Assembly: GCA_964538375.1 (NCBI GenBank)
Contig: CAZIFQ010000003.1
Location: forward strand, 130,439 to 194,438
Length of the DNA: 64,000 bases
Direction of reading: 5' to 3'
Source: an uncultured Bacteroidaceae bacterium
GTDB taxonomy: Bacteria; Bacteroidota; Bacteroidia; Bacteroidales; GCA-2748055
The position numbers and the translations under genes were made by a program. Positions within the stretch are counted from its first letter, which is position 1; each line of letters begins with the position of its first letter. The notes beneath the pieces are model-generated. The model saw only the letters and a list, made by a program, of their open reading frames with translations. It was not told the DNA's origin and searched no databases. Shown here piece by piece: positions 8,305-50,685 of the stretch.

Positions 8305-9347
8305 TACTCTTTGTACCAATTAATAAACTTACTTATCCCCTCTTCGATCGATGTATCTGGCTTATAATTGTAATTCGAGACAAGTGCATCCACATCAGCC
8401 CAGGTTTTCTCCACATCACCTGCTTGTATGGGCACTAAGATTCTCTCTGCCTCTTTGCCAGTTGCTTTTTCTATGGCATCTATAAAATCCATCAGTCGAA
8501 CCGGATTGTTATTACCAATATTATACAAGCGATAAGGAGCTGTTGAAGATGAAGGATCAGGCATGGCTGAATTCCATTCTGCATTTCCGACAGGTGGGTT
8601 TTCTACCATACGGCTTATTCCTGTGACGATATCATCTACATAGGTAAAGTCTCGTTCCATCTTACCATGGTTAAATACCTCGATAGGCCTACCTTCAAGA
8701 ATGGCTTTTGTAAAAATAAACAGTGCCATATCCGGGCGCCCCCATGGTCCATATACAGTAAAGAAACGAAGTCCAATTGTAGGTATACCAAATAGGTGGC
8801 TGTAAGTATGTGCCATCAGTTCGTTACTCTTCTTGCTTGCTGCGTATAAGCTTACTGGGTGATCAACATTAGAACTAACAGAGAAGGGCATGGTTGTATT
8901 CAGTCCGTATACGCTACTACTGCTGGCATAAATTAAATTTTCCACCGGGTGAAATCGGCAAGCTTCAAGAATATTCAGGAAACCTGTAATATTACTTCCA
9001 ATATAAACTTCTGGATTAGTAAGACTGTATCTCACTCCTGCCTGGGCTGCCAGGTTTATAACAACATCGAATTTCTCATCGGAAAACAACTTATCGATGC
9101 CTTCTTTATCTTCCAGCTTTAATTGTATGAACTGGTAATTATCATTTGTCGAGCTGTGTACGATCTTTCCATACGAAACATCTTCCTCTGCTACACCGGC
9201 ATGCTTCAGTCGGGAATATTTCAATGAAAGCTCATAGTAATTATTAACTTCATCCAGGCCTGTTACCTGGTGTCCTTCATCAAGCAATTTATTTGCAAGG
9301 TGAAACCCTATGAATCCTGCAGTTCCGGTAATAAGGATCTTCTTCAT
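8292..9347 (-). CDS. NAD-dependent epimerase (UDP-glucuronate 4-epimerase-like, extended SDR)
   Basis: ILITGTAGFIG, LAAQAGVRYS, YASSSSVYG, YAASK, LRFFTVYGPWGRPDMA, RDFTYVDD. Confidence 0.93.
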   Translation of the reverse strand: MKKILITGTAGFIGFHLANKLLDEGHQVTGLDEVNNYYELSLKYSRLKHAGVAEEDVSYGKIVHSSTNDNYQFIQLKLEDKEGIDKLFSDEKFDVVINLAAQAGVRYSLTNPEVYIGSNITGFLNILEACRFHPVENLIYASSSSVYGLNTTMPFSVSSNVDHPVSLYAASKKSNELMAHTYSHLFGIPTIGLRFFTVYGPWGRPDMALFIFTKAILEGRPIEVFNHGKMERDFTYVDDIVTGISRMVENPPVGNAEWNSAMPDPSSSTAPYRLYNIGNNNPVRLMDFIDAIEKATGKEAERILVPIQAGDVEKTWADVDALVSNYNYKPDTSIEEGISKFINWYKEYYQV

Positions 9348-9359
9348 TGTTCTTTAACC

Positions 9360-9385
9360 AGATGAGGCATGCCTCATCTTTTACA
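9360..9385. repeat. REP-like palindrome with GAGGCATGCCTC core
   Basis: Perfect 20-bp palindrome agatgaggcatgcctcatct (9360-9379); the same 12-bp core recurs at 42839-42850. Confidence 0.7.
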
Positions 9386-9426
9386 AAAAGCTTCGATTAT
9401 TATTCTTTTTCATCCTTCCCCTCTAC

Positions 9427-11001
9427 CTATTTCGCGTAATTCACAGCCCGGGTTTCCCTGATAACTGTTATTTTCACCTGTCCCGGATAGGTCATCTCAT
9501 CCTGAATCTTCTTGGCTATATCGTAGGAGAGTTTGTCTGCATCTTTATCGCTTACCTTCTCACTTCCAACAATAACTCGTAATTCACGACCAGCTTGAAT
9601 AGCATAGCTCTTAATTACACCTGGGTATGATAAGGCCATGGATTCAAGTTCTTTCAAGCGCTTGATATATGATTCAACCACTTCTCTCCTTGCTCCCGGC
9701 CTGGCACCTGAAATAGCATCACAAACCTGGACAATCGGAGAAATAAGAGAGGTCATTTCAGTCTCATCATGATGAGACCCAATGGCATTGCAAACTTCTG
9801 GCTTTTCTTTGTACTTCTCAGCCAATTTCATTCCGAAAATTGCGTGTGGTAGTTCCGGCTCATCATCAGGTACTTTTCCAATATCATGCAATAGTCCGGC
9901 ACGCCTGGCAATCTTGGCATTGAGACCAAGTTCTGAAGCCATAATAGCACAAAGGTTTGCTACCTCTCTTGAGTGCTGAAGAAGGTTCTGTCCATACGAT
10001 GAGCGGTATTTCATTTTACCTACCATTCTTGTTAATTCAGGGTGTAAACCATGAATTCCAAGGTCAATAGCTGTTCTTTTACCTGTTTCAATGATCTCTT
10101 CTTCAATCTGCTTCCTTGTTTTTTCAACCACCTCTTCAATTCTTGCAGGATGAATCCTGCCGTCGGTAACGAGTTGGTGCAGCGCCAGTCGTGCAATTTC
10201 ACGACGCACTGGATCAAATCCCGAAAGAATAATGGCTTCAGGAGTATCATCTACGATCACTTCAATACCAGTAGCAGATTCCAGGGCACGAATATTCCGT
10301 CCCTCGCGACCTATGATACGGCCCTTCATTTCATCTGAATCGATATGGAAGACTGTGACAGCATTTTCAATAGCGCTTTCGGCAGCCACCCTCTGGATGG
10401 TTTCGATAACTACTTTTTTGGCATCCTTGTTGGCGGTCAATTTTGCTTCATCCATAATATCGTTGATAGATGACATGGCCTCAGTTCTGGCCTCTTCTTT
10501 CAACGATTCCACCAACTGCTTGGTGGCTTCTTCTGCAGAAAGCCCGGAAATAGTTTCCAGCTGCTCAACCTGCATTCTATGTGATTTCTCCAGCTCTTCT
10601 TTACGCTTTTCGATCAAGTCAAGCTGGTTTGTAAGGTTACCGCGAATTGCTTCTGTATCGCTAAGTTCTTTTCTAAGTTCATCCTCCTTTTGTGTAGCAG
10701 TATACTCTTTCTGCTTAATCGCAGATTCTCTCTGCCCAATCCTGTTATCCTTCTCGTTGATCATTTTTTCATGATCAGCTTTCAATTGGAGAAATTTTTC
10801 TTTTGCCTGCAGCATTTTCCTCTGCTTTATCATCTCTGCTTCCTGCTCGGCATCTTTTATGACATTACTTCCCTTCCTTTTTATCGATGCGGTACACACA
10901 AAATACGTCGCCACTATTCCTATTATCAATGTGCTTCCTCCAGCCAAAAAGTACCCCATCAAAGGAATCTGTAACACCACCTGGCTTATTAACAGTTCCA
11001 T
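9427..11001 (-). CDS. rny: Ribonuclease Y
   Basis: N-terminal TM, coiled coil, KH domain ([17 protein letters not shown]), HD domain (LLHDIGK), C-terminal [10 protein letters not shown]. Confidence 0.98.
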
Positions 11002-11021
11002 AATTTCTAATTTTTAGGTAT

Positions 11022-11224
11022 AAAAAAACCCGCATATTCCTTCAAGATTTTATAAAACCCCTATAAGGCATTTAAGGAGTCGCCGTCTCTTGTCGAGTTT
11101 CCACTGATCCCGATAAATCGTGATTTCCGGCGAACCGAAATTGTGGCCTGCTCTTCAAGCTCCGAGCTTTACTCCAATTTTATAAATGTTGAGTTTCAAA
11201 AATAATTTGAAGAAACAATGCGGG
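11022..11224 (-). ncRNA. ssrS: 6S RNA
   Basis: Lies between zapA and rny, the usual Bacteroidota position. Ends pair (cccgcat..ttcaa at 11029 with ttgaa..atgcggg ending 11224); internal ggagt/actcc helix; A/U-rich central bubble; 3' U tail on the minus strand. Confidence 0.85.
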
Positions 11225-41817: not shown

Positions 41818-42786
41818 ATGAAACAGCTAAAGATTTATCTCCTTTTCTTAACAGGAATACTTCTCTTTTCTTGCGATGGATCCGATGATGATCCGATTTA
41901 CAAAGAACGTATGCGCGAATTTGTTCAGGGAATCAGCACTTATGCAAAAAACATGGATCCCAATTTTATCATCATCCCTCAAAACGGTCATGATCTTGCC
42001 TCCGCAACAGGCGATGGTGATGACCCCACCCCTGCTACTGAATATCTTGCTTCCATTGATGGTGCAGGACAAGAAGATTTGAATTATGGATATAACAGTG
42101 ATGACAAAGAAACACCGGAAAGCACAAATGAATTTCTGATGGCTTTTCTAACTATTTGTGAAGACAATGATGTGGAGGTGTTGGTCACCGATTATTGCAG
42201 CTCTCATGACAACATGGACGATTCATATCATGTAAACAACAGCAATGGTTTTATCTCCTTCGCTGCCCCGGATCGTGAATTAAGTATTATTCCAGATTAC
42301 CCGGCAACCATTTACAATACCAATGAAACTAATATTACGAAGCTATCGGAAGCAAAGAATTTTCTATACCTGCTAAATCCTGAAAATTTTGCGTCAAGCG
42401 AAGATTTTGTTACTGCCATCTCCGCCTCTGATTATGATGTACTAATAATCGATTTTTTCTTTGAAGATGAAGTCTTTACAGCCAATCAAATTAAATCTTT
42501 AAAGAAAAAATCTAACGGTGCACAACGGCTCTTAATCTCTTATATGAGTATTGGAGAAGCAGAGGATTACCGCTTTTACTGGGATTCAAGCTGGGATGAT
42601 GAGCAACCTGACTGGATTGAAGCAGAAAACCCAAGATGGCCCGGTAATTATAAAGTAAAATACTGGGATCCTGGCTGGCAATCCATTATTTACGGATCAA
42701 ACGAGTCTTATCTTGACAAAATTCTTGGTGCTGGCTTTGATGGAGTGTACCTTGATATCATTGATGCTTTCGAGTATTTTGAATGA
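41818..42786 (+). CDS. GH114/GH166-like (TM1410/MJ1477-type) polygalactosaminidase-family lipoprotein
   Basis: Lipobox LFSC; IIPQNG, IDG..QEDL, LISYMSIGEAEDYRFYW, GNYKVKYW, GFDGVYLDIID. Confidence 0.85.
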   Translation: MKQLKIYLLFLTGILLFSCDGSDDDPIYKERMREFVQGISTYAKNMDPNFIIIPQNGHDLASATGDGDDPTPATEYLASIDGAGQEDLNYGYNSDDKETPESTNEFLMAFLTICEDNDVEVLVTDYCSSHDNMDDSYHVNNSNGFISFAAPDRELSIIPDYPATIYNTNETNITKLSEAKNFLYLLNPENFASSEDFVTAISASDYDVLIIDFFFEDEVFTANQIKSLKKKSNGAQRLLISYMSIGEAEDYRFYWDSSWDDEQPDWIEAENPRWPGNYKVKYWDPGWQSIIYGSNESYLDKILGAGFDGVYLDIIDAFEYFE

Positions 42787-42828: not shown

Positions 42829-42859
42829 TGTAGGGGTTGAGGCATGCCTCGACCTTACA
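42829..42859. repeat. REP-like imperfect palindrome
   Basis: tgtaggggttgaggcatgcctcgaccttaca: GTAG start, GAGGCATGCCTC core. Confidence 0.7.
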
Positions 42860-42974
42860 AATTACTCTAGTCAATCAATGACAAATTATTTTAATAATTT
42901 CATTCAATCCCATACACGTCATTATGTGTTTTTTTAGTTAAATTAGTGACTTTAAGATAACAAACCCCAACAAT

Positions 42975-44750
42975 ATGGAACCTACTAGAACTTTCGATCT
43001 CCTGGAACGCTACAAACAACATTTCCCAAACAAAGAAAATGCTTTATCAGCCAAGCAAAATGGAAAATGGATTTCCTATTCGACCCAAACTTATATTGAA
43101 ACCTGCAATAATTTTGCCTACGGATTACTGGAATGCGGTATGAAGAAGGGCGATAAAATTATTACGGCAACCAGCAACAGGCCTGAATGGAACTTTGTAG
43201 ATCATGGTATGGCTATGTGTGGCATAGTTCATGTACCAGTATATACCTCCCTGAATGAGGAAGAATACAACTATATCGTGGAACATTCAGAAGCAAGAAT
43301 GGTATTTGTGGCTAACAAAAATTTGTATAACAAATTTCTTCCAGCTTGTAAAAAAGCTAAAATTGAAAAAAATATTTATTTATTCGATCCCATTGATGAT
43401 TTGCCAGGATGGAGCGAAATAGTTGAATTGGGAAAAACTAATGCAGAAAAATGGAAGGATAGATTAGAAAAAATAAAAGAGAGCATACAAGAAGATGACT
43501 TCAGTTCACTCCTCTATACTTCAGGAACCACGGGAAGATCCAAAGGAGTTATGCTGTCGCATAAAAACATGGTCAGTAATTTTATTGAAGCTGCCAAAGT
43601 ATTTCAATTAAAAGAGAATGATAAATATTTGAGCATACTTCCATTATGCCATGTGGGTGGAAGAATGGGTAACTACCAGACTCAGTATAGTGGCACAGGA
43701 GTTTACTATGCTGAGAATATGGGTGCCTTCGCAAAAGTAATGAAAGAGATTGCTGCCGACGGTTTTGATGCTGTACCACGGGTTATGGAAAAGGTATATG
43801 ATAACATTATTTCCAAAGGAAGCCAGCTTACTGGCATGAAGAAAAAAATATTCTTCTGGGCAGTGAAACTGGGATTAAAATATAAGCCCTTTGGAGAAAA
43901 TGGTTGGTTCTACGAACAAAAACTTAAGATTGCAGATAAACTAATTTTTTCAAAGTGGCGGGATGCCCTAGGAGGAAATGTAAAATTAGTTGGCTGCGGC
44001 GGTGCAGCTCTTCAGCCGCGCCTTGAAAGAATTTTTTGGGCAGCTGGTGTTAAAATCATCAATATGTACGGGCTTACAGAAACATCTCCCATTATTACCA
44101 TAAACAGGCAACAGGCACCGCATTGTAAGCTCGGAACAGTTGGAGCGCTTATTGATGGTGTGGAATTGAAAATTGCAGAAGACGGAGAGATCCTGGCACG
44201 TGGAAATTGCATTATGCTCGGGTATTATAAAGACGAAAAATTAACAAAAGAATCTATCGATAAGGAAGGTTGGTTCCATACAGGTGATATTGGTCACCTT
44301 GAAGATGGTAAGTTCCTTGCTGTCACTGACAGAAAGAAAGAGATTTTTAAATTATCCAACGGGAAATTTGTAGCTCCACAACTTATTGAAAATGCTTTCA
44401 AGGAATCTCTTTTCATTGATCAGCTCATGGTATTAGGAGAAGGCGAAAAATTTGCCAGCGCTTTAATTATTCCGGATTATGATCAATTGAAAATATGGGG
44501 AGATGAAAAAAACATTGCGTTTTCTTCCAACGAGGAACTCATCTCTATGCCTGAAGTTCAAAATCATTACAAAGAAGAAATCAATCGTTTGAATAATGCT
44601 TTTAGTGAACATGAACGTGTTAACCGTTTCAAAATCGTGAAAGAAAACTGGTCTCCGGAATCGGGAGACCTCTCTCCTACCCTGAAACTAAAAAGAAAAA
44701 TTGTAGCAGAAAGAAACAAAGAGCTGATTGATAGCATTTACGGAAATTAA
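42975..44750 (+). CDS. Long-chain fatty acyl-CoA ligase (AMP-binding)
   Basis: LLYTSGTTGRSKGVMLSH, LSILPLCH, MYGLTETSP, GWFHTGDIG, DRKKEIFKLSNGKFVAP, PTLKLKR. Confidence 0.95.
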   Translation: MEPTRTFDLLERYKQHFPNKENALSAKQNGKWISYSTQTYIETCNNFAYGLLECGMKKGDKIITATSNRPEWNFVDHGMAMCGIVHVPVYTSLNEEEYNYIVEHSEARMVFVANKNLYNKFLPACKKAKIEKNIYLFDPIDDLPGWSEIVELGKTNAEKWKDRLEKIKESIQEDDFSSLLYTSGTTGRSKGVMLSHKNMVSNFIEAAKVFQLKENDKYLSILPLCHVGGRMGNYQTQYSGTGVYYAENMGAFAKVMKEIAADGFDAVPRVMEKVYDNIISKGSQLTGMKKKIFFWAVKLGLKYKPFGENGWFYEQKLKIADKLIFSKWRDALGGNVKLVGCGGAALQPRLERIFWAAGVKIINMYGLTETSPIITINRQQAPHCKLGTVGALIDGVELKIAEDGEILARGNCIMLGYYKDEKLTKESIDKEGWFHTGDIGHLEDGKFLAVTDRKKEIFKLSNGKFVAPQLIENAFKESLFIDQLMVLGEGEKFASALIIPDYDQLKIWGDEKNIAFSSNEELISMPEVQNHYKEEINRLNNAFSEHERVNRFKIVKENWSPESGDLSPTLKLKRKIVAERNKELIDSIYGN

Positions 44751-44767
44751 TCTCTTAAAGCTACACA

Positions 44768-45940
44768 ATGAAAATTATTGAAGTTTTTGATCGCAGAAGC
44801 CAAAAACAGTTTCTCAATCTTCCCAAAAAATTATACAAAGATGACTCTTTCTGGGTTTGTCCAATGGACAATGAAATTGAAGCAATCTTTAACCCAAAGA
44901 AGAACGACTACTTTAATCATGGTGAAGTAACAAGGTTCTTACTTAAAGATGATAAGGGCGAATTTATTGGCAGAATCGCAGTTTTTATTGATCGAAAAGC
45001 TGCATTTGATTTTGACCAGCCAACCGGTGGAATTGGGTTCTTCGAATGTATCAATAACCAGGAGGCGGCCAACATGCTGTTTGATACGGCTAAAAAATGG
45101 CTGGCTTTCAGAAAAATTGAAGCAATGGATGGCCCCATCAATTTTGGTGAAACAGATAAATACTGGGGCTTGTTAGTTGACGGTTTTACACATCCTTCTT
45201 ATGAGATAGCATACAATTTTAAATACTACCAATCCCTGTTTGAAACCTATGGATTTCAAACCTATTACAACCAGGAAGGTTTTCACCTCGATATTACAAA
45301 ACCTCTTCCACCCAAATTTGAAAAAATTGCCAACTGGGTGGCAAATAAACCAGAATATACTTTCGAACATCTTGATTTCAAGCAGATTGACAGGCAATTA
45401 GGCGATTTTTGTACAGTATTTAATGAAGCTTGGGCAAGTTTTAAAGAGAATTTTAAGCCCCTCGAAAAAAAGTACACCATAGCAACGCTAAAAAAAGTCA
45501 GGCAAATAATTGAACCCGAATTCATATGGATCGCTTATCACGAGCAAAAGCCGATTACTATCTACCTGATGTACCCTGATGTAAACATGATCCTGAAACA
45601 TATGAACGGGAATATGCACGTATTCAACAAACTAAAATTCCTTTCGCTAAAAAATAAAAAAGCCATGACACGCGCAAGGGGTGTATTGATGGGCACTATT
45701 CCTGAATTCCAGGGAAGAGGTATTGAAGCAGCCATAATATTGCAACTGGTTAAAGTGTTCGAGAGGAAAAAACAGTATACCGAAATTGAGTTTTCATGGG
45801 TAGCTGATTTCAATCCGAAAATGAAAAAAATCTTCCTCTCAGTCGGGAACAAACATGTGAAAACATATAAGACATACAGGTATCTGTTTGACAGGAACAA
45901 ACCTTTTAAAAGGGTTCCGATACCGGAGGGGGATTACTAG
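44768..45940 (+). CDS. YghO-like GNAT-fold acyltransferase (bacterial ceramide synthase-like)
   Basis: GRIAVF, GGIGFFECINNQEAANMLF, MDGPINF, GLLVDGF, YN..YY..LFE..GF, GTIPEFQGRGIEA, EFSWV...N..M. Confidence 0.75.
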   Translation: MKIIEVFDRRSQKQFLNLPKKLYKDDSFWVCPMDNEIEAIFNPKKNDYFNHGEVTRFLLKDDKGEFIGRIAVFIDRKAAFDFDQPTGGIGFFECINNQEAANMLFDTAKKWLAFRKIEAMDGPINFGETDKYWGLLVDGFTHPSYEIAYNFKYYQSLFETYGFQTYYNQEGFHLDITKPLPPKFEKIANWVANKPEYTFEHLDFKQIDRQLGDFCTVFNEAWASFKENFKPLEKKYTIATLKKVRQIIEPEFIWIAYHEQKPITIYLMYPDVNMILKHMNGNMHVFNKLKFLSLKNKKAMTRARGVLMGTIPEFQGRGIEAAIILQLVKVFERKKQYTEIEFSWVADFNPKMKKIFLSVGNKHVKTYKTYRYLFDRNKPFKRVPIPEGDY

Positions 45941-45945
45941 GAGGA

Positions 45946-45961
45946 AGTGAACTAAAGTGAC
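45946..45961. repeat. Copy of the 9-mer microrepeat segment at 18150-18165 (inverted)
   Basis: agtgaactaaagtgac is the reverse complement of gtcactttagttcact. Confidence 0.65.
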
Positions 45962-45976
45962 TTGAGTGAGCAAAGG

Positions 45977-46012
45977 TTTGTAGAGACGCGCCACGTGGCG
46001 CGTCTCTACAAA
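45977..46012. repeat. Perfect 36-bp REP-like palindrome
   Basis: tttgtagagacgcgccac|gtggcgcgtctctacaaa, GTAG-type REP. Confidence 0.85.
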
Positions 46013-46044
46013 CTCCAACTCTACTAACTCTATTAACTCAACAC

Positions 46045-47484
46045 ATGACATACGACATTATTATCATAGGTGGCGGATTAGGTGGTTTAACAGCCGGAGC
46101 GAAATTGGCAAAGGAAGGTAAAACTGTTCTTCTGCTTGAACAGCATGATCGTCCGGGAGGATGTGCCACAACATTTAAACGCAAAGATTTTACCATGGAG
46201 GTTGGCCTTCATGAAATGGATGGATTACACCCCACCGATGGTAAACATAAGATATTTAATGAGTTGGGCGTATATGATGATGTTGAGTTTTTGCCGCTTC
46301 CTGAATTCTATCGATTTAAAAATGAACGGCTTGATTTGGTAATGCCACACAACAAGGAAAAGGCCATAGCCATATTAAATGAGAATTTCCCTGGCCAGGC
46401 AGATGGCATAGATACCTACTTTGAGAGATTGATGAATGCGCGAAGAATCAATGTTCTTGAGAGAGATAAACCTAATATCAGTGTTGGTGAATACCTGGAT
46501 TCAATTTTTACCAATGAAGAGCTAAAGCTTTTTTTACTGGGTAACCTCGGGTATTTTCATGATGATCCATATACCCTTTCACTTAGATATTTTTCTGTTG
46601 CAGAAGGAGCATATTTCCAGGGAAGAGCCAACTATATCAAGGGAGGATCTCAAAAGCTTTCAGACAAGCTAATGAACATCATCAGGCAAAATGGAGGAAA
46701 AGTATTGTTGAGTCACAAAGTAAGCTCAATATCCACCTCAGGAGATAAGGTCATTGAAATTAGTTTTAAGAATGTTCTCCCTGGAGCGCATAGTGAAATC
46801 AAAGCCACTGCAAAAGAATACATTGCTAATGCTGCGCTGGCCAATATTGCAGACATGCTTGATAAGGAACATGGTTCTGCTCTTAAGAAGCAACTTGAAA
46901 CACATGAAATTGGGGCATCGCTGTTAACAGTGTATTTCGGATTCTCCAAACCACTTAAGGAAATTGGCAATCAGTATTATTCCACTTTCGTTTATGATGA
47001 AAGCGTCAGATGCCAAAAAGATATCCTGGCTAACAATCATGGAGATTTTTCTGTCAGGAGCTACACTTTTGTAGACTATAGCCAGGTAGATGCTCAGCTC
47101 TGTCCGGCAGATAAAGGTGTAGGAGCAATATGTGCCATTGACTATACAGCTGATTGGGATGGCTTATCAAGAGAAGAATATAAGCAAAAGAAAAAAGAGG
47201 TCGGTGAAATTTTTGCTGAAAGGTTAAATAAACTAATTCCTGGCTCAAAAGAATTAATTGAACATATTGAAGTAGCTACAGCCAAAACTGTCCGTCGCTA
47301 CACTTTGAATCCACAGGGTGCCGTTTACGGTTTTGCCCAGAATCCGGGTAGGGTACCTCTGAATGGAATTGAAGGAATAGAAAATTTCCATGTTGCCTCT
47401 GCATGGGGAAAATTTGGTGGTGGATTTTCCGGAGCAATCTATAGTGGCTACATGACTGCGCTTGACATACTTAGACTAAAATAG
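46045..47484 (+). CDS. FAD-dependent oxidoreductase, phytoene desaturase/retinol saturase superfamily (COG1233-like)
   Basis: IIIGGGLGGLTAG, LEQHDRPGG, EVGLH, IKGGSQKL, TVRRYTLNPQGAVYG, GGGFSGAIYSG. Confidence 0.88.
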   Translation: MTYDIIIIGGGLGGLTAGAKLAKEGKTVLLLEQHDRPGGCATTFKRKDFTMEVGLHEMDGLHPTDGKHKIFNELGVYDDVEFLPLPEFYRFKNERLDLVMPHNKEKAIAILNENFPGQADGIDTYFERLMNARRINVLERDKPNISVGEYLDSIFTNEELKLFLLGNLGYFHDDPYTLSLRYFSVAEGAYFQGRANYIKGGSQKLSDKLMNIIRQNGGKVLLSHKVSSISTSGDKVIEISFKNVLPGAHSEIKATAKEYIANAALANIADMLDKEHGSALKKQLETHEIGASLLTVYFGFSKPLKEIGNQYYSTFVYDESVRCQKDILANNHGDFSVRSYTFVDYSQVDAQLCPADKGVGAICAIDYTADWDGLSREEYKQKKKEVGEIFAERLNKLIPGSKELIEHIEVATAKTVRRYTLNPQGAVYGFAQNPGRVPLNGIEGIENFHVASAWGKFGGGFSGAIYSGYMTALDILRLK

Positions 47485-47598: not shown

Positions 47599-50500
47599 CT
47601 ATTTTGAGACTACAACCCTGAATGGCTCCATAAGTCCATAATCCAGCAAATCATAATTTACCCCGGACGGTTGATCCTCAGGTGCATATTTAAAACTCCA
47701 TGGAGTCACAATCCCGTTTCTTCTTGAATGATGTGGTCCAAGCAAATTTTTCAATGATCCGATAACTGTCACTGTAATTGTATTCTCTCCCCGTTTGATA
47801 TATTTATCAATTCTTAATTCACCTGGAGAAGCAAATATCTGCCCTGCCTTTTTGCTATTAACTGTAACGGTAGCAACAGTTCCCTGCCAATCCGGTAAAA
47901 CAACTTTTGCTAAGCCCCGACCATCAATTTCGACACTGGCCGTATATTCCATTTTATCATAGTAAAACGGATATCCCTGGTCCTTCCAGGAACCAATTTC
48001 CATGCCCGCTTTCTCTCCGATTATCCATCCCTTATCCAAAGCCAGGACATTGAAATCACCTAAAAGATAGACAGGTTCAAGTTCAATGTAGACTGACATT
48101 GGGGAAGCTCTAAGAATAACTCTATTATCTCCATTTTGAACACTCTTGCTAATGTCAAACACTGCAAAAGATTTATCAAGCCACCACTCTCCTGGCAGTG
48201 GCTCGAGCAAGACTTCATTCAACAACACTTCATATAATTCTGCTCTTTCAACTACCAATTTAATTGGAACATTTCCTGGTTTTATGTCAAACCTAAAAGG
48301 AAACTGCACTTCAAATCCGGAGTTAGTTCCGAAAGTATCCCGATCAATTATTTCTGTCTTAAACTGGGAAGAAGAGACCCATGGATTTGTAGGAAATCCG
48401 TGTGCATTGAAGATCTTTGTCTGTGCGTTATAAAAGTATATCAAACCCGTGGTATCCTCTTTCATAGTTAAATAGCAGTAGTCGAGATTCATCACGTTTT
48501 GCATATCAGGATTTACCTTCAACATACTTATTTCAATGTCTGTCTCAATCCCTCTCCATTTTTTAATCCTGGTTCTCCGGGCATTTATCTCCTCATTGCT
48601 GATATAGAGTAGCAAACTCCCTCCCGGGGGAATTGAGGCAGCAAAACTTATAATATCAGAGGTCACTACACAAGGGAAATTTTCGATTTCGCCTGTAAAA
48701 AGATTCATCTTTACAACATCATTTCCCTGCAAAACCATTCGGGTTTTGCATGTTTCAAATTTATCGGAATTTACAAGGAATAGTATTTGTCCATCTTCAA
48801 GAATACGCCTGTGATGGAACAGTTTGCCTCCCTCTTGTTCTACAAGGATAAATTCATCTGATAATAAATAGTTGACGCACCTGGGATCATTCGATCCATT
48901 TATTGATATCCACTCTTCAGGAAACTTATCCGGCCATTCGGTACACCTTTCTGTTTCAACACCATCAATATATAAAGGCGGACTACCCAATGAAAGAACT
49001 GTTCCTCCATTTAACAAAAAAGCTTCAATTAAGTCTGCCGTGCTTTTGTTGATGTTATGCATAAATTCAGGAAAAACTACATAGGTGTACTGTTGCTCTC
49101 CCACCTCAAATTTTCCATTTTCAACTGCACCATAATCTCTGATAATATTCTCAGAACCAAGATCATATTCTACTTGCTCCTCTTCCATCCTATCAAGCAA
49201 AGCAACAAACTCCTTATTCAAGTGCTCAATGGTGGTATTTTTCTCATCAAGCGCATAGTACATCCATGCAGTAGTAGTAGGTTCTATTATCAAAACACGA
49301 TTCTTTTGGACACCTGAAGAGAGAGCCAAAGACAAACGGGCAAAATAATCTGCCAACGAATTATACTCCTCCCACCAGGGTGTGTGATAAGAAAATGATT
49401 GCGGAAAATCGTGTTTCCTGTCCCCCATGATAGTACCATACGAGAGATGCTGGGTCATCATGTTAACACCCAGCGCATACTCCCAGTCACCATTCCTCTT
49501 CATATCATCGAATGTTAACTCCCATCCCGATGCTCCATATGTTTCACTCAGTTTCCTCTCTCTTCCCAACTGGTTTCCAACGCTGTTCAATTCACGAACG
49601 GCCCTGATGTTCCCAAATTGATCATTTCGTTCACCCATAGTATTAAACAACATATCAATTCCCGGTACCTGGTGCCATGCGTACATAGCCATATTATCAG
49701 GGCCCTGATTTGGTGAGGGCCAGTCGTGTTCCCAGTAATGACCTGTCCATGATAAATTCTGCTTTTCGGTATATTCATACCATGGTTTCGACCATCGATC
49801 AATAAATAGTTCCAGTAAAAGCTGGTAATAATTGTGTCTTACAGTCTTGTAGTCTCCTTCATTTTCAACAAGTGAAACAAGGTGTGGCTCGAGCCGATAC
49901 CCCCATCTCTCCTCATATTGCTCATACAGATCTGCTGTCCATCGAATCAATGAGGAGCCACCCTGTGGGGCTATATTGGGCTCGTCTGTAAATATACCCG
50001 GAACAGTGTTCCCAAATTCCATTCCCACCTCTTTTTCATATCCGGTCATCGTTACTTCAATAAATTTCTCAGTTACACCGGGCTTAATCAAATCTACATA
50101 TGAATACCCTGCATACCATTCTGAATTTGGAAAATATATCTTTTCATACAGTAAAAAATCACCCTTCTTACCTGTCAAACTATCTACCTTCTCAGTAACT
50201 TCAATATGCCCCTTGAAGATATGCAGATACTCCTTTGTTGTGTCAGGTTTCAGAATAGTCTGACGATGAAGTTTTAATGCCTGCCCCTCATTATATGAAG
50301 AAGGCATAGCAGCGGCAACCAATCCCCCACCAAAGCCACTTGGAAATGAATTCTCATCATATAGCCAGAGTTGCATGTCCATAGAGCGTGCCTTTTTCAT
50401 GGCATATTTTACCAGCTCATACCACTCTTCAGAAGCATACTCAGTAATCAATCCATACCGGGGATGCACAAATACACCACCGAATCCACGCAAACTAAAA

Positions 50501-50685
50501 TCTTCCAGCTGCTCATCAATCATTTTCTCTGTAATCACACCATTCCATACCCAGAATGGCATAGTTTTATATGCTGCAGGTGGAGTTTCAAATTCCTTTT
50601 TTAGATTATTAAATCCATCTCCGCTATTGCATGCTGTCATCAGGAGGAAAAAAACAGCGACTCCAAAAATCTTAAATATCTTCAT
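47599..50685 (-). CDS. GH106-like (alpha-L-rhamnosidase family) glycoside hydrolase lipoprotein
   Basis: Lipobox MTAC; PFWVWNG, GFGGVFVHPR, LYDENSFPSG, IFTDEP, PGIDML, LSETYG, HDFPQSF. Confidence 0.8.
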   Translation of the reverse strand: MKIFKIFGVAVFFLLMTACNSGDGFNNLKKEFETPPAAYKTMPFWVWNGVITEKMIDEQLEDFSLRGFGGVFVHPRYGLITEYASEEWYELVKYAMKKARSMDMQLWLYDENSFPSGFGGGLVAAAMPSSYNEGQALKLHRQTILKPDTTKEYLHIFKGHIEVTEKVDSLTGKKGDFLLYEKIYFPNSEWYAGYSYVDLIKPGVTEKFIEVTMTGYEKEVGMEFGNTVPGIFTDEPNIAPQGGSSLIRWTADLYEQYEERWGYRLEPHLVSLVENEGDYKTVRHNYYQLLLELFIDRWSKPWYEYTEKQNLSWTGHYWEHDWPSPNQGPDNMAMYAWHQVPGIDMLFNTMGERNDQFGNIRAVRELNSVGNQLGRERKLSETYGASGWELTFDDMKRNGDWEYALGVNMMTQHLSYGTIMGDRKHDFPQSFSYHTPWWEEYNSLADYFARLSLALSSGVQKNRVLIIEPTTTAWMYYALDEKNTTIEHLNKEFVALLDRMEEEQVEYDLGSENIIRDYGAVENGKFEVGEQQYTYVVFPEFMHNINKSTADLIEAFLLNGGTVLSLGSPPLYIDGVETERCTEWPDKFPEEWISINGSNDPRCVNYLLSDEFILVEQEGGKLFHHRRILEDGQILFLVNSDKFETCKTRMVLQGNDVVKMNLFTGEIENFPCVVTSDIISFAASIPPGGSLLLYISNEEINARRTRIKKWRGIETDIEISMLKVNPDMQNVMNLDYCYLTMKEDTTGLIYFYNAQTKIFNAHGFPTNPWVSSSQFKTEIIDRDTFGTNSGFEVQFPFRFDIKPGNVPIKLVVERAELYEVLLNEVLLEPLPGEWWLDKSFAVFDISKSVQNGDNRVILRASPMSVYIELEPVYLLGDFNVLALDKGWIIGEKAGMEIGSWKDQGYPFYYDKMEYTASVEIDGRGLAKVVLPDWQGTVATVTVNSKKAGQIFASPGELRIDKYIKRGENTITVTVIGSLKNLLGPHHSRRNGIVTPWSFKYAPEDQPSGVNYDLLDYGLMEPFRVVVSK

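Follow-up and report, generated by a model that had tools for sequence, protein, structure and literature searches.

A conserved acyl-CoA ligase, GNAT and flavoenzyme operon of Bacteroidales with a possible role in N-acyl-lipid formation

Layout and conservation of the three-gene operon

We analysed a stretch of 64,000 nucleotides (nt) from an uncultured Bacteroidaceae bacterium (GenBank assembly GCA_964538375.1, contig CAZIFQ010000003.1, positions 130,439 to 194,438 of the forward strand), referred to here as the window. Three genes that follow one another on the same strand encode an acyl-CoA ligase, a GNAT protein and an FAD enzyme (Table 1). The stop of the ligase gene and the start of the GNAT gene are 17 nt apart, and the 104 nt between the GNAT and FAD genes contain a 38-nt perfect palindrome. 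The trio is a conserved, uncharacterised and self-contained three-gene operon, present in some environmental Bacteroidales and, overall, in a minority (about 5%) of Bacteroidales genomes.

Synteny was assessed by local tblastn over 80 loci, together with clustering of all neighbouring open reading frames (ORFs). The ligase and GNAT genes were found together in 33 loci and all three genes in 26, and the same gene order occurs in about 30 species-level genomes. Of the 80 loci, none that holds all three genes stems from an isolate. In these relatives the median gaps are 26 nt between ligase and GNAT and 36 nt between GNAT and FAD genes. Clustering of the ORFs that neighbour the 80 loci gave no further conserved neighbour of the module.

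Co-occurrence was scored in 13 genomes with a GNAT of the same type as that in the window (A-type, at least 58% identity) and in 17 other genomes, by Fisher tests that ignore phylogeny. Orthologues of the ligase (59–64% identity) adjoin the GNAT gene in all 13 A-type genomes and in none of the 17 others (p = 8e-9), which have only a generic ligase paralogue of at most 50% identity. The genome under study has a separate generic paralogue, 51% identical, on contig C5. Orthologues of the FAD enzyme (at least 51% identity) are present in 11 of the 13 A-type genomes, adjacent to the module in 10, and in 0/17 others (p = 1.4e-6); the gene is single-copy in this genome. Synteny and co-occurrence both show the FAD gene to be conserved together with the ligase-GNAT pair, as expected in a preliminary description made from the sequence alone.

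The ligase contains an AMP-binding domain (Pfam PF00501, 227 bits against a cut-off of 29.9) and a C-terminal lid (AMP-binding_C_3, PF23562, 32 bits). Its best NCBIfam families are fatty-acid-CoA ligases (FadD11, 284 bits; PRK06187, 238 bits), at scores below the equivalog cut-offs, and its closest match in the PDB is FadD-1 (3g7s). As far as can be told from sequence, it is a long-chain acyl-CoA ligase of the ACSL/FadD type that is dedicated to the module.

The core of the palindrome between the GNAT and FAD genes, GAGACGCGCC-N4-GGCGCGTCTC, has at least 21 copies in the genome at up to two mismatches, and since these copies are dispersed the element is justly called a REP-type (repetitive extragenic palindromic) sequence. 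The ORF coordinates, the perfect palindrome and the number of core copies agree with the earlier account of a closely spaced ligase-GNAT pair followed, after a REP, by a same-strand FAD gene. Because the median GNAT-FAD gap in relatives is much shorter, the gap in this genome has been enlarged by insertion of the REP. The core of this palindrome family often has GTA...TAC flanks; one copy sits inside the operon and the others occupy at least 20 further sites. Upstream of the ligase gene, the short imperfect palindrome is single-copy in the genome. The upstream transcription unit may end there, and the promoter of the module should lie between this palindrome and position 42974. The GH114/TM1410-like protein encoded further upstream just passes the TIGR01370 cut-off (183.1 against 181.25 bits), with the match in two stretches.

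Table 1. Features of the operon and its flanks, in window coordinates.
Feature	Position	Strand	Remarks
Acyl-CoA ligase gene	42975-44750	+	591 amino acids (aa); ORF map; first gene of the module
GNAT gene (A-type)	44768-45940	+	390 aa; ORF map; middle gene
FAD enzyme gene	46045-47484	+	479 aa; ORF map; last gene of the module
GH114-like gene	41818-42786	+	Upstream of the module; 188-nt gap to ligase gene
Convergent gene	47599-50685	opposite to module	Downstream of the module
Short imperfect palindrome	42835-42854	none	In the 188-nt gap between GH114-like and ligase genes; inverted-repeat search
REP-type perfect palindrome, 19 + 19 nt	45976-46013	none	Between GNAT and FAD genes; inverted-repeat search

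Place of the GNAT in the YghO family

The GNAT has no Pfam or NCBIfam match at E < 1e-3, and a sequence search of the PDB likewise gave no match; a weak match to Acetyltransf_1 (E = 0.02) covers residues 249–354. By BLASTP, it aligns over its full length with Escherichia coli YghO (22% identity over 372 aa, E = 5e-30) and matches CerS of Bacteroides fragilis NCTC 9343 (24% identity, E = 1e-27). The AlphaFold2 model (pLDDT 88, pTM 0.85) has a tandem GNAT fold, and the top Foldseek matches in the PDB are all tandem GNATs (5kf1, 7q3a, 2wpw, 1ozp); the proteins matched by fold are glucosamine N-acetyltransferase, MAB_4324, a clavulanate-pathway protein, MshD, FemX and Eis. The CoA loop of the C-terminal lobe reads FQGRG and has the pattern Q315-x-x-G318, in which Q315 and G318 are invariant among 40 relatives; it thus fits the CoA-binding consensus Q/R-x-x-G-x-G/A. 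The assignment to a YghO-like family in the preliminary description is thus upheld by full-length homology to YghO and B. fragilis CerS and by the tandem fold, and on this evidence the GNAT is a divergent paralogue within the YghO/bCerS family of tandem GNATs and a predicted acyl-CoA-dependent N-acyltransferase. For the ceramide N-acyltransferase of Caulobacter, CC_1154, yghO (ECD_02850) is listed as the equivalent in E. coli (PMC9386255).

Three full-length paralogues of this family are encoded in the genome. The A-type is the window gene, the B-type, on contig C6, is 47% identical to it, and the C-type, on contig C25, is 29% identical to it and much closer to YghO (33% identity, E = 3e-68). 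Among 251 Bacteroidales genomes, sampled evenly over the families, an A-type gene is present in 13 besides this one and a B-like gene in about 100, and many genomes have distant family members only. Every A-type genome also carries a B-type paralogue. The C-type probe, which was tried as a marker of 'the' ceramide synthase, reached only 9/251 genomes, indicating that the family comprises at least four deep types and has to be resolved by a tree.

The tree (IQ-TREE, LG+C20+F+G4) was built from 58 sequences, with E. coli YghO, the proteins of B. fragilis NCTC 9343 and B. thetaiotaomicron VPI-5482 and spt-adjacent genes as references. The A clade is monophyletic (support 100/99) and is nested in a Bacteroidota-specific superclade of 40 tips (A, B, the tandem pairs of Prolixibacteraceae and genes of Sphingobacteriaceae), which is supported at 100/100 and stands on a stem of 1.87 substitutions per site. 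Both Bacteroides reference proteins fall in a D clade (100/100), which also holds the Bacteroides ihuae and B. pyogenes proteins and distant members from spt-positive genomes, and the spt-adjacent genes form a small C clade (99/97). The A/B superclade is split from YghO, the D clade and the C clade with 100/100 support. The family gene of B. fragilis, at 5,153,782-5,154,912, is the sole member in its genome; for this reason and from its position we infer that it is BF9343_4218, the CerS identified through its homology to CCNA_01212 and confirmed in a knockout (bioRxiv 10.1101/2023.05.23.541633). All 105 sampled Bacteroides species have a CerS-type (D) gene, and none has an A/B-type gene.

In several respects the window GNAT resembles the ceramide synthases known as bCerS or CerS (Caulobacter CC_1154, which is CCNA_01212; YghO; BF9343_4218). 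These are soluble tandem GNATs of about 380–390 aa that share with it full-length homology (22–24% identity, E about 1e-27 to 1e-30) and a CoA loop in the C-terminal lobe, and by analogy acyl-thioester-dependent N-acylation of a long-chain amine would be expected of it. In contrast to these enzymes, however, it belongs to a separate paralogous superclade with a very long stem, coexists with other family members in one genome, is neither linked to nor co-distributed with spt or cerR, and shares its operon with a dedicated acyl-CoA ligase and a flavoenzyme of CrtI type. In the tree, the true Bacteroides-type CerS clade stands apart from a large superclade of paralogues to which homology searches would wrongly attach the label 'bCerS'. 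This distinction is important wherever metagenomic surveys use bCerS matches to deduce which organisms produce sphingolipids.

Some further members of the family were encountered. In Prolixibacteraceae (Draconibacterium, Maribellus, Mangrovibacterium, Mariniphaga, Tangfeifania), two genes of the A/B superclade stand in tandem (at about 8700-11170 in loci L059, L061, L064, L070, L072, L073, L077, L085, L086, L094 and L095), and since the two copies form sister clades the duplication must be old. About ten Bacteroides species (e.g. G273, G303, G255, G297, G321 and G307) have a second CerS-type copy with 46–51% identity to the first. In E. coli strains without the IS5 of K-12, yghO lies beside genes for a fatty acyl-AMP ligase (FAAL), an NAD-dependent epimerase/dehydratase and an acyl carrier protein (ACP), spt and paralogues of lptF/G. 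Comparison of K-12 MG1655 (L096, 3129043-3131340) with such a strain (L097) shows that IS5 abuts yghO and replaces the FAAL-cerR-acp-spt-lptFG cluster of sphingolipid type, and the first 70 nt of yghO as annotated in K-12 match IS5-flanked sequence and not the yghO of other strains.

Long-chain-base synthases and the ceramide question

The genomes were scored for spt with the Spt equivalog that NCBIfam provides for Bacteroidota (NF047600, cut-off 640 bits). Of the 251 Bacteroidales, 75 pass this threshold, but only two of the 14 A-type genomes do (G015 and G099). Canonical spt was not found in the genome under study, where the best NF047600 score is 357 bits, for Kbl. A tblastn search of the genome for CerR, using the epimerase/dehydratase of the E. 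coli cluster and hence an E. coli-type query only, gave nothing at E < 1e-5. In G099, which has both spt and the A-type module, the spt-adjacent gene is a C-type paralogue and the module lies elsewhere. For the family as a whole, all 75 spt-positive Bacteroidales have a member, and all 32 genomes without a member also have no spt (p = 6e-6).

The GNAT falls outside the clades of validated ceramide synthases, and it does not track spt in its distribution. By the 100/100 split and the long stem it is not an orthologue of ceramide synthase, and on this phylogenetic evidence, together with the lack of a canonical spt in the genome, the ceramide interpretation is very probably wrong for the A-type paralogue. 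Of the three outcomes that the preliminary description named as refuting its reading, two have come about: the GNAT lies outside the bCerS clade, and canonical spt is missing from the genome, as it is from 12 of the 14 module genomes in all. Its observation that no serine palmitoyltransferase gene lies in the window was correct: a PF00155 search of the genome placed every match on other contigs, leaving no alpha-oxoamine synthase in the window. The role it gave to the unit survives in part: the broader idea of an amide lipid still stands, as does the coupling to the FAD enzyme, for which synteny and co-occurrence speak, whereas the tree and the distribution of spt speak against ceramide as the product.

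Three genomes have an spt gene, or an spt-like gene just below the cut-off, that is immediately followed by a C-type gene (G046:C81:498-2810; G099:C89:11049-13361; G069:C58:3273-5625). Such a compact spt-cerS pair differs from the situation in Bacteroides, where the genes are dispersed.

The only long-chain-base synthase in the genome, and its second alpha-oxoamine synthase, is a close orthologue of SulA, the cysteate acyltransferase with which sulfonolipid synthesis begins; it is encoded outside the window (C44:9048-10304, minus strand), alone among housekeeping genes. It scores 603 bits to Alistipes finegoldii SulA (PDB 7u7h) and 592 bits to a 'cysteate-C-fatty acyltransferase' (28eh), and its K279 aligns with Lys281, the residue that separates SulA from Spt (PMC9304779), so that the diagnostic lysine is conserved. 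Given a close SulA orthologue with this lysine, the organism is likely to be a sulfonolipid producer without canonical Spt. SulA is present in 29/30 genomes that have a gene of the A/B superclade versus 17/32 that do not (p = 8e-5), and in 20 of 21 A-type genomes. N-acylation of capnine has been described as a step of the sulfonolipid pathway with no enzyme named (PMC10191378, PMC11211663), and a search for a named capnine N-acyltransferase found none in the literature covered.

A separate group of five genomes (G013, G033, G035, G039 and G050) has a SulA orthologue (63–68% identity) and no detectable gene of the YghO family. If these organisms make N-acyl capnines, another kind of N-acyltransferase must exist.

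Proposed role of the operon and competing explanations

The FAD protein matches the Pfam families Amino_oxidase (PF01593) and NAD_binding_8 (PF13450) above their cut-offs. It fails the curated thresholds for the CrtI family and its equivalogs in NCBIfam (CrtD, 155.7 against 549.7 bits; carotenoid isomerase, 111 against 587; TIGR02734 crtI_fam, 72.6 against 238), but has an FAD-binding GxGxxG N-terminus and a fold of CrtI type. The best Foldseek match of the AlphaFold2 model (pLDDT 89.7) is gamma-carotenoid desaturase (4rep, TM-score (TM) 0.79), followed by CrtI and plant PDS, with 5mog at TM 0.71 and 4dgk at E = 8.5e-23, and the fold is closer to CrtD, CrtI and PDS (TM 0.71–0.79) than to amine oxidases (TM 0.6–0.66). 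Orthologues carry the JGI label 'all-trans-retinol 13,14-reductase'. A search for phytoene/squalene synthase (PF00494) gave no match in this 98.6%-complete genome, or in four other module genomes (5/14 in all). The substrate is accordingly not expected to be a carotenoid in a genome without this enzyme, and a carotenoid reading was dropped. The enzyme is a CrtI/CrtD/RetSat-like FAD-dependent oxidoreductase, and its predicted target is a C-C/C=C bond in a lipid chain. It has in common with CrtI, CrtD, CrtISO and RetSat the FAD Rossmann N-terminus and the overall fold, and the repertoire of the CrtI family covers desaturation, isomerisation and saturation of C=C bonds in lipid chains. Unlike the known members, it has only 16–18% identity to those of solved structure, scores under every NCBIfam equivalog or subfamily cut-off, resides in a host without a carotenoid/squalene backbone synthase, and is tied genetically to an acyl-CoA ligase and an N-acyltransferase.

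Bacterial de novo fatty acid synthesis delivers acyl-ACP, and a CoA-dependent transferase would consequently need its own supplier of acyl-CoA. In the scheme that we tentatively prefer, the ligase would convert a free long-chain fatty acid, probably scavenged or otherwise special, into acyl-CoA, the GNAT would move the acyl group onto the amino group of a long-chain amine, and the flavoenzyme, before or after the transfer, would introduce, remove or shift a C=C bond either in the acyl chain or in the base. This logic of activation, transfer and modification is the most economical reading of the three genes. The acceptor is probably cysteate-derived (3-keto)capnine made by SulA rather than a serine-derived sphingoid base, because SulA is the only long-chain-base synthase here and accompanies the module in nearly all genomes that have it. 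A variant sulfonolipid would result, in parallel with whatever product the ubiquitous B-type paralogue forms. Taken as a whole, the proposal of an acyl-CoA-fed N-acyl-lipid operon that acts on (3-keto)capnine, with a CrtI/RetSat-like change of a C=C bond, may be correct, although we hold it with somewhat less than even confidence. 

Two known systems bear on this proposal. The dihydroceramide set of proteobacteria comprises five genes, aasR (acyl-ACP synthetase), acpR, spt, cerR/epi and bcerS/aca (PMC9386255), and resembles the module in pairing an adenylate-forming activator of fatty acids with an N-acyltransferase of the YghO family. In that set, however, the product of the adenylating enzyme goes, on a dedicated ACP, to Spt and not to the N-acyltransferase, whereas the module has no ACP, Spt or reductase and its ligase is a CoA ligase of the ACSL/FadD type, not a FAAL or AasR. 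No flavin desaturase was found when one was looked for in the extended sphingolipid gene set of Caulobacter. The sulfonolipid (capnine/sulfobacin) pathway consists of CapA, SulA (also CapB or CFAT), CapC/KCR and an unnamed N-acyltransferase. The genome has the SulA orthologue, the module is almost limited to SulA-positive genomes, and by analogy with ceramide the family of its GNAT is the one expected for the fourth step. On the other hand, the module is unlinked to sulA, many SulA-positive genomes are without it, so that it could serve at most a variant of the pathway, and no flavoenzyme step is described in the sulfonolipid literature consulted for the comparison.

Several observations weigh against (3-keto)capnine as the acceptor and against the trio as a fixed unit. 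SulA is common (46/62 sampled Bacteroidales), and its presence in 20/21 module genomes is a modest enrichment (binomial p = 0.016, phylogeny ignored). Seventeen SulA-positive genomes have no A/B-type gene, five of them lacking the whole family, and sulfonolipid N-acylation can therefore not depend on the A/B clade everywhere. The module never adjoins sulA. With a B-type paralogue in each A-type genome and a third paralogue in this one, any division of labour is guesswork, and the length of the superclade stem permits a change of acceptor class. Lipid synthesis in A. finegoldii uses acyl-ACP, which sits uneasily with a CoA-dependent step (PMC9304779). Finally, two A-type genomes are without the FAD gene, G190 (98% complete) and G077 (fragmented), and three loci hold ligase and GNAT with no FAD gene adjacent.

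The strongest competitor is the acylation of a soluble amine (an amino acid, polyamine or amino sugar) by the GNAT to give an N-acyl signal or secondary lipid, with the flavoenzyme oxidising or desaturating either the amide or, prior to activation, the free fatty acid. Enzymes that act on soluble amines are among the best fold matches of the GNAT (glucosamine N-acetyltransferases, MshD and the clavulanic-acid tandem GNAT), but at 8–12% identity the matches mirror general architecture and not specificity. Similarly, the long stem would allow the acceptor to have changed, the neighbours of the module are variable and often glycan-degrading genes, and the flavoenzyme also resembles amine oxidases; yet the family as a whole tracks long-chain-base synthases, the flavoenzyme is nearer to the lipid-chain enzymes, and the module has no linked gene for an amine-forming enzyme, be it a decarboxylase or an aminotransferase. 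We regard this alternative as unlikely, though it deserves to be taken seriously. It is considerably less probable that the module makes ceramide, with the GNAT N-acylating 3-ketosphinganine or sphinganine from ligase-made acyl-CoA and the FAD enzyme tailoring the product. Kinship with YghO/bCerS, the spt genes of G015 and G099 and the position of validated enzymes on two deep branches of the family, from which N-acylation of long-chain bases may be ancestral, would suit such a role. Against it stand the lack of a canonical spt and of an E. coli-type cerR match in this genome, the rarity of spt among module genomes, the split from YghO and Bacteroides CerS, the different paralogue beside spt in G099, and the ceramide-making genus Bacteroides, in which none of the 105 genomes has an A/B-type gene.

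Two further explanations can be largely set aside. A housekeeping ligase, an unrelated acetyltransferase and an unrelated oxidoreductase might have become neighbours by chance and serve no common pathway, as the REP between the FAD gene and the ligase-GNAT pair and the few lineages that keep the GNAT without a nearby FAD gene or ligase (L025, L038 and L056; L050, L052, L054 and L087) could suggest; four lineages retain the GNAT alone. This is very improbable, however, since gene order is kept down to 54–56% protein identity, orthologues of all three genes are limited to the same genomes, and the ligase, which differs from its generic paralogue, is specific to the module. Equally hard to credit, and if anything a shade more so, is an acylated isoprenoid or carotenoid of the staphyloxanthin kind, in which the CrtI-like enzyme would desaturate a C30/C40 backbone that is esterified by the ligase and acyltransferase. 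The flavoenzyme does have CrtI/CrtD as its nearest known family, and a PF00494 gene occurs somewhere in 9/14 module genomes; but such genes never adjoin the module, they are missing from this genome and four others, all CrtI-type NCBIfam scores are far under their cut-offs, and the acyltransferase family is N-acyl, not O-acyl.

The scheme of an N-acyl-lipid operon acting on (3-keto)capnine can be extended to the whole superclade. The A/B enzymes might be the missing N-acyltransferases of N-acyl-capnine synthesis, the B-type making the bulk lipid together with a SufS-like enzyme and the A-type operon forming a salvage-and-tailoring branch that yields a distinct sulfonolipid from CoA-activated exogenous fatty acids, where the flavoenzyme would set the saturation of the chain; this wider version is doubtful. 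If true, the FAD enzyme would be the first of the CrtI family shown on a sphingoid-type lipid, and action on any amide lipid would extend CrtI-family chemistry beyond isoprenoids. The module is a compact, portable three-gene set, and sulfonolipids and sphingolipids of Bacteroidota are bioactive, having been linked to TLR4 signalling and gliding motility.

The region of the B-type paralogue lies outside the window, on the plus strand of another contig of the same genome (C6:94449-98834). The B-type gene is 10 nt downstream of a gene for a 507-aa SufS-like class-V pyridoxal phosphate (PLP) enzyme; an alternative GlmU-type gene comes next. A PLP enzyme of sulfur amino acids beside a bCerS-like transferase, in SulA-positive genomes, invites a link to cysteate and sulfonolipids. 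The synteny of this region is kept in L057, L062, L066, L074, L080, L088 and L093.

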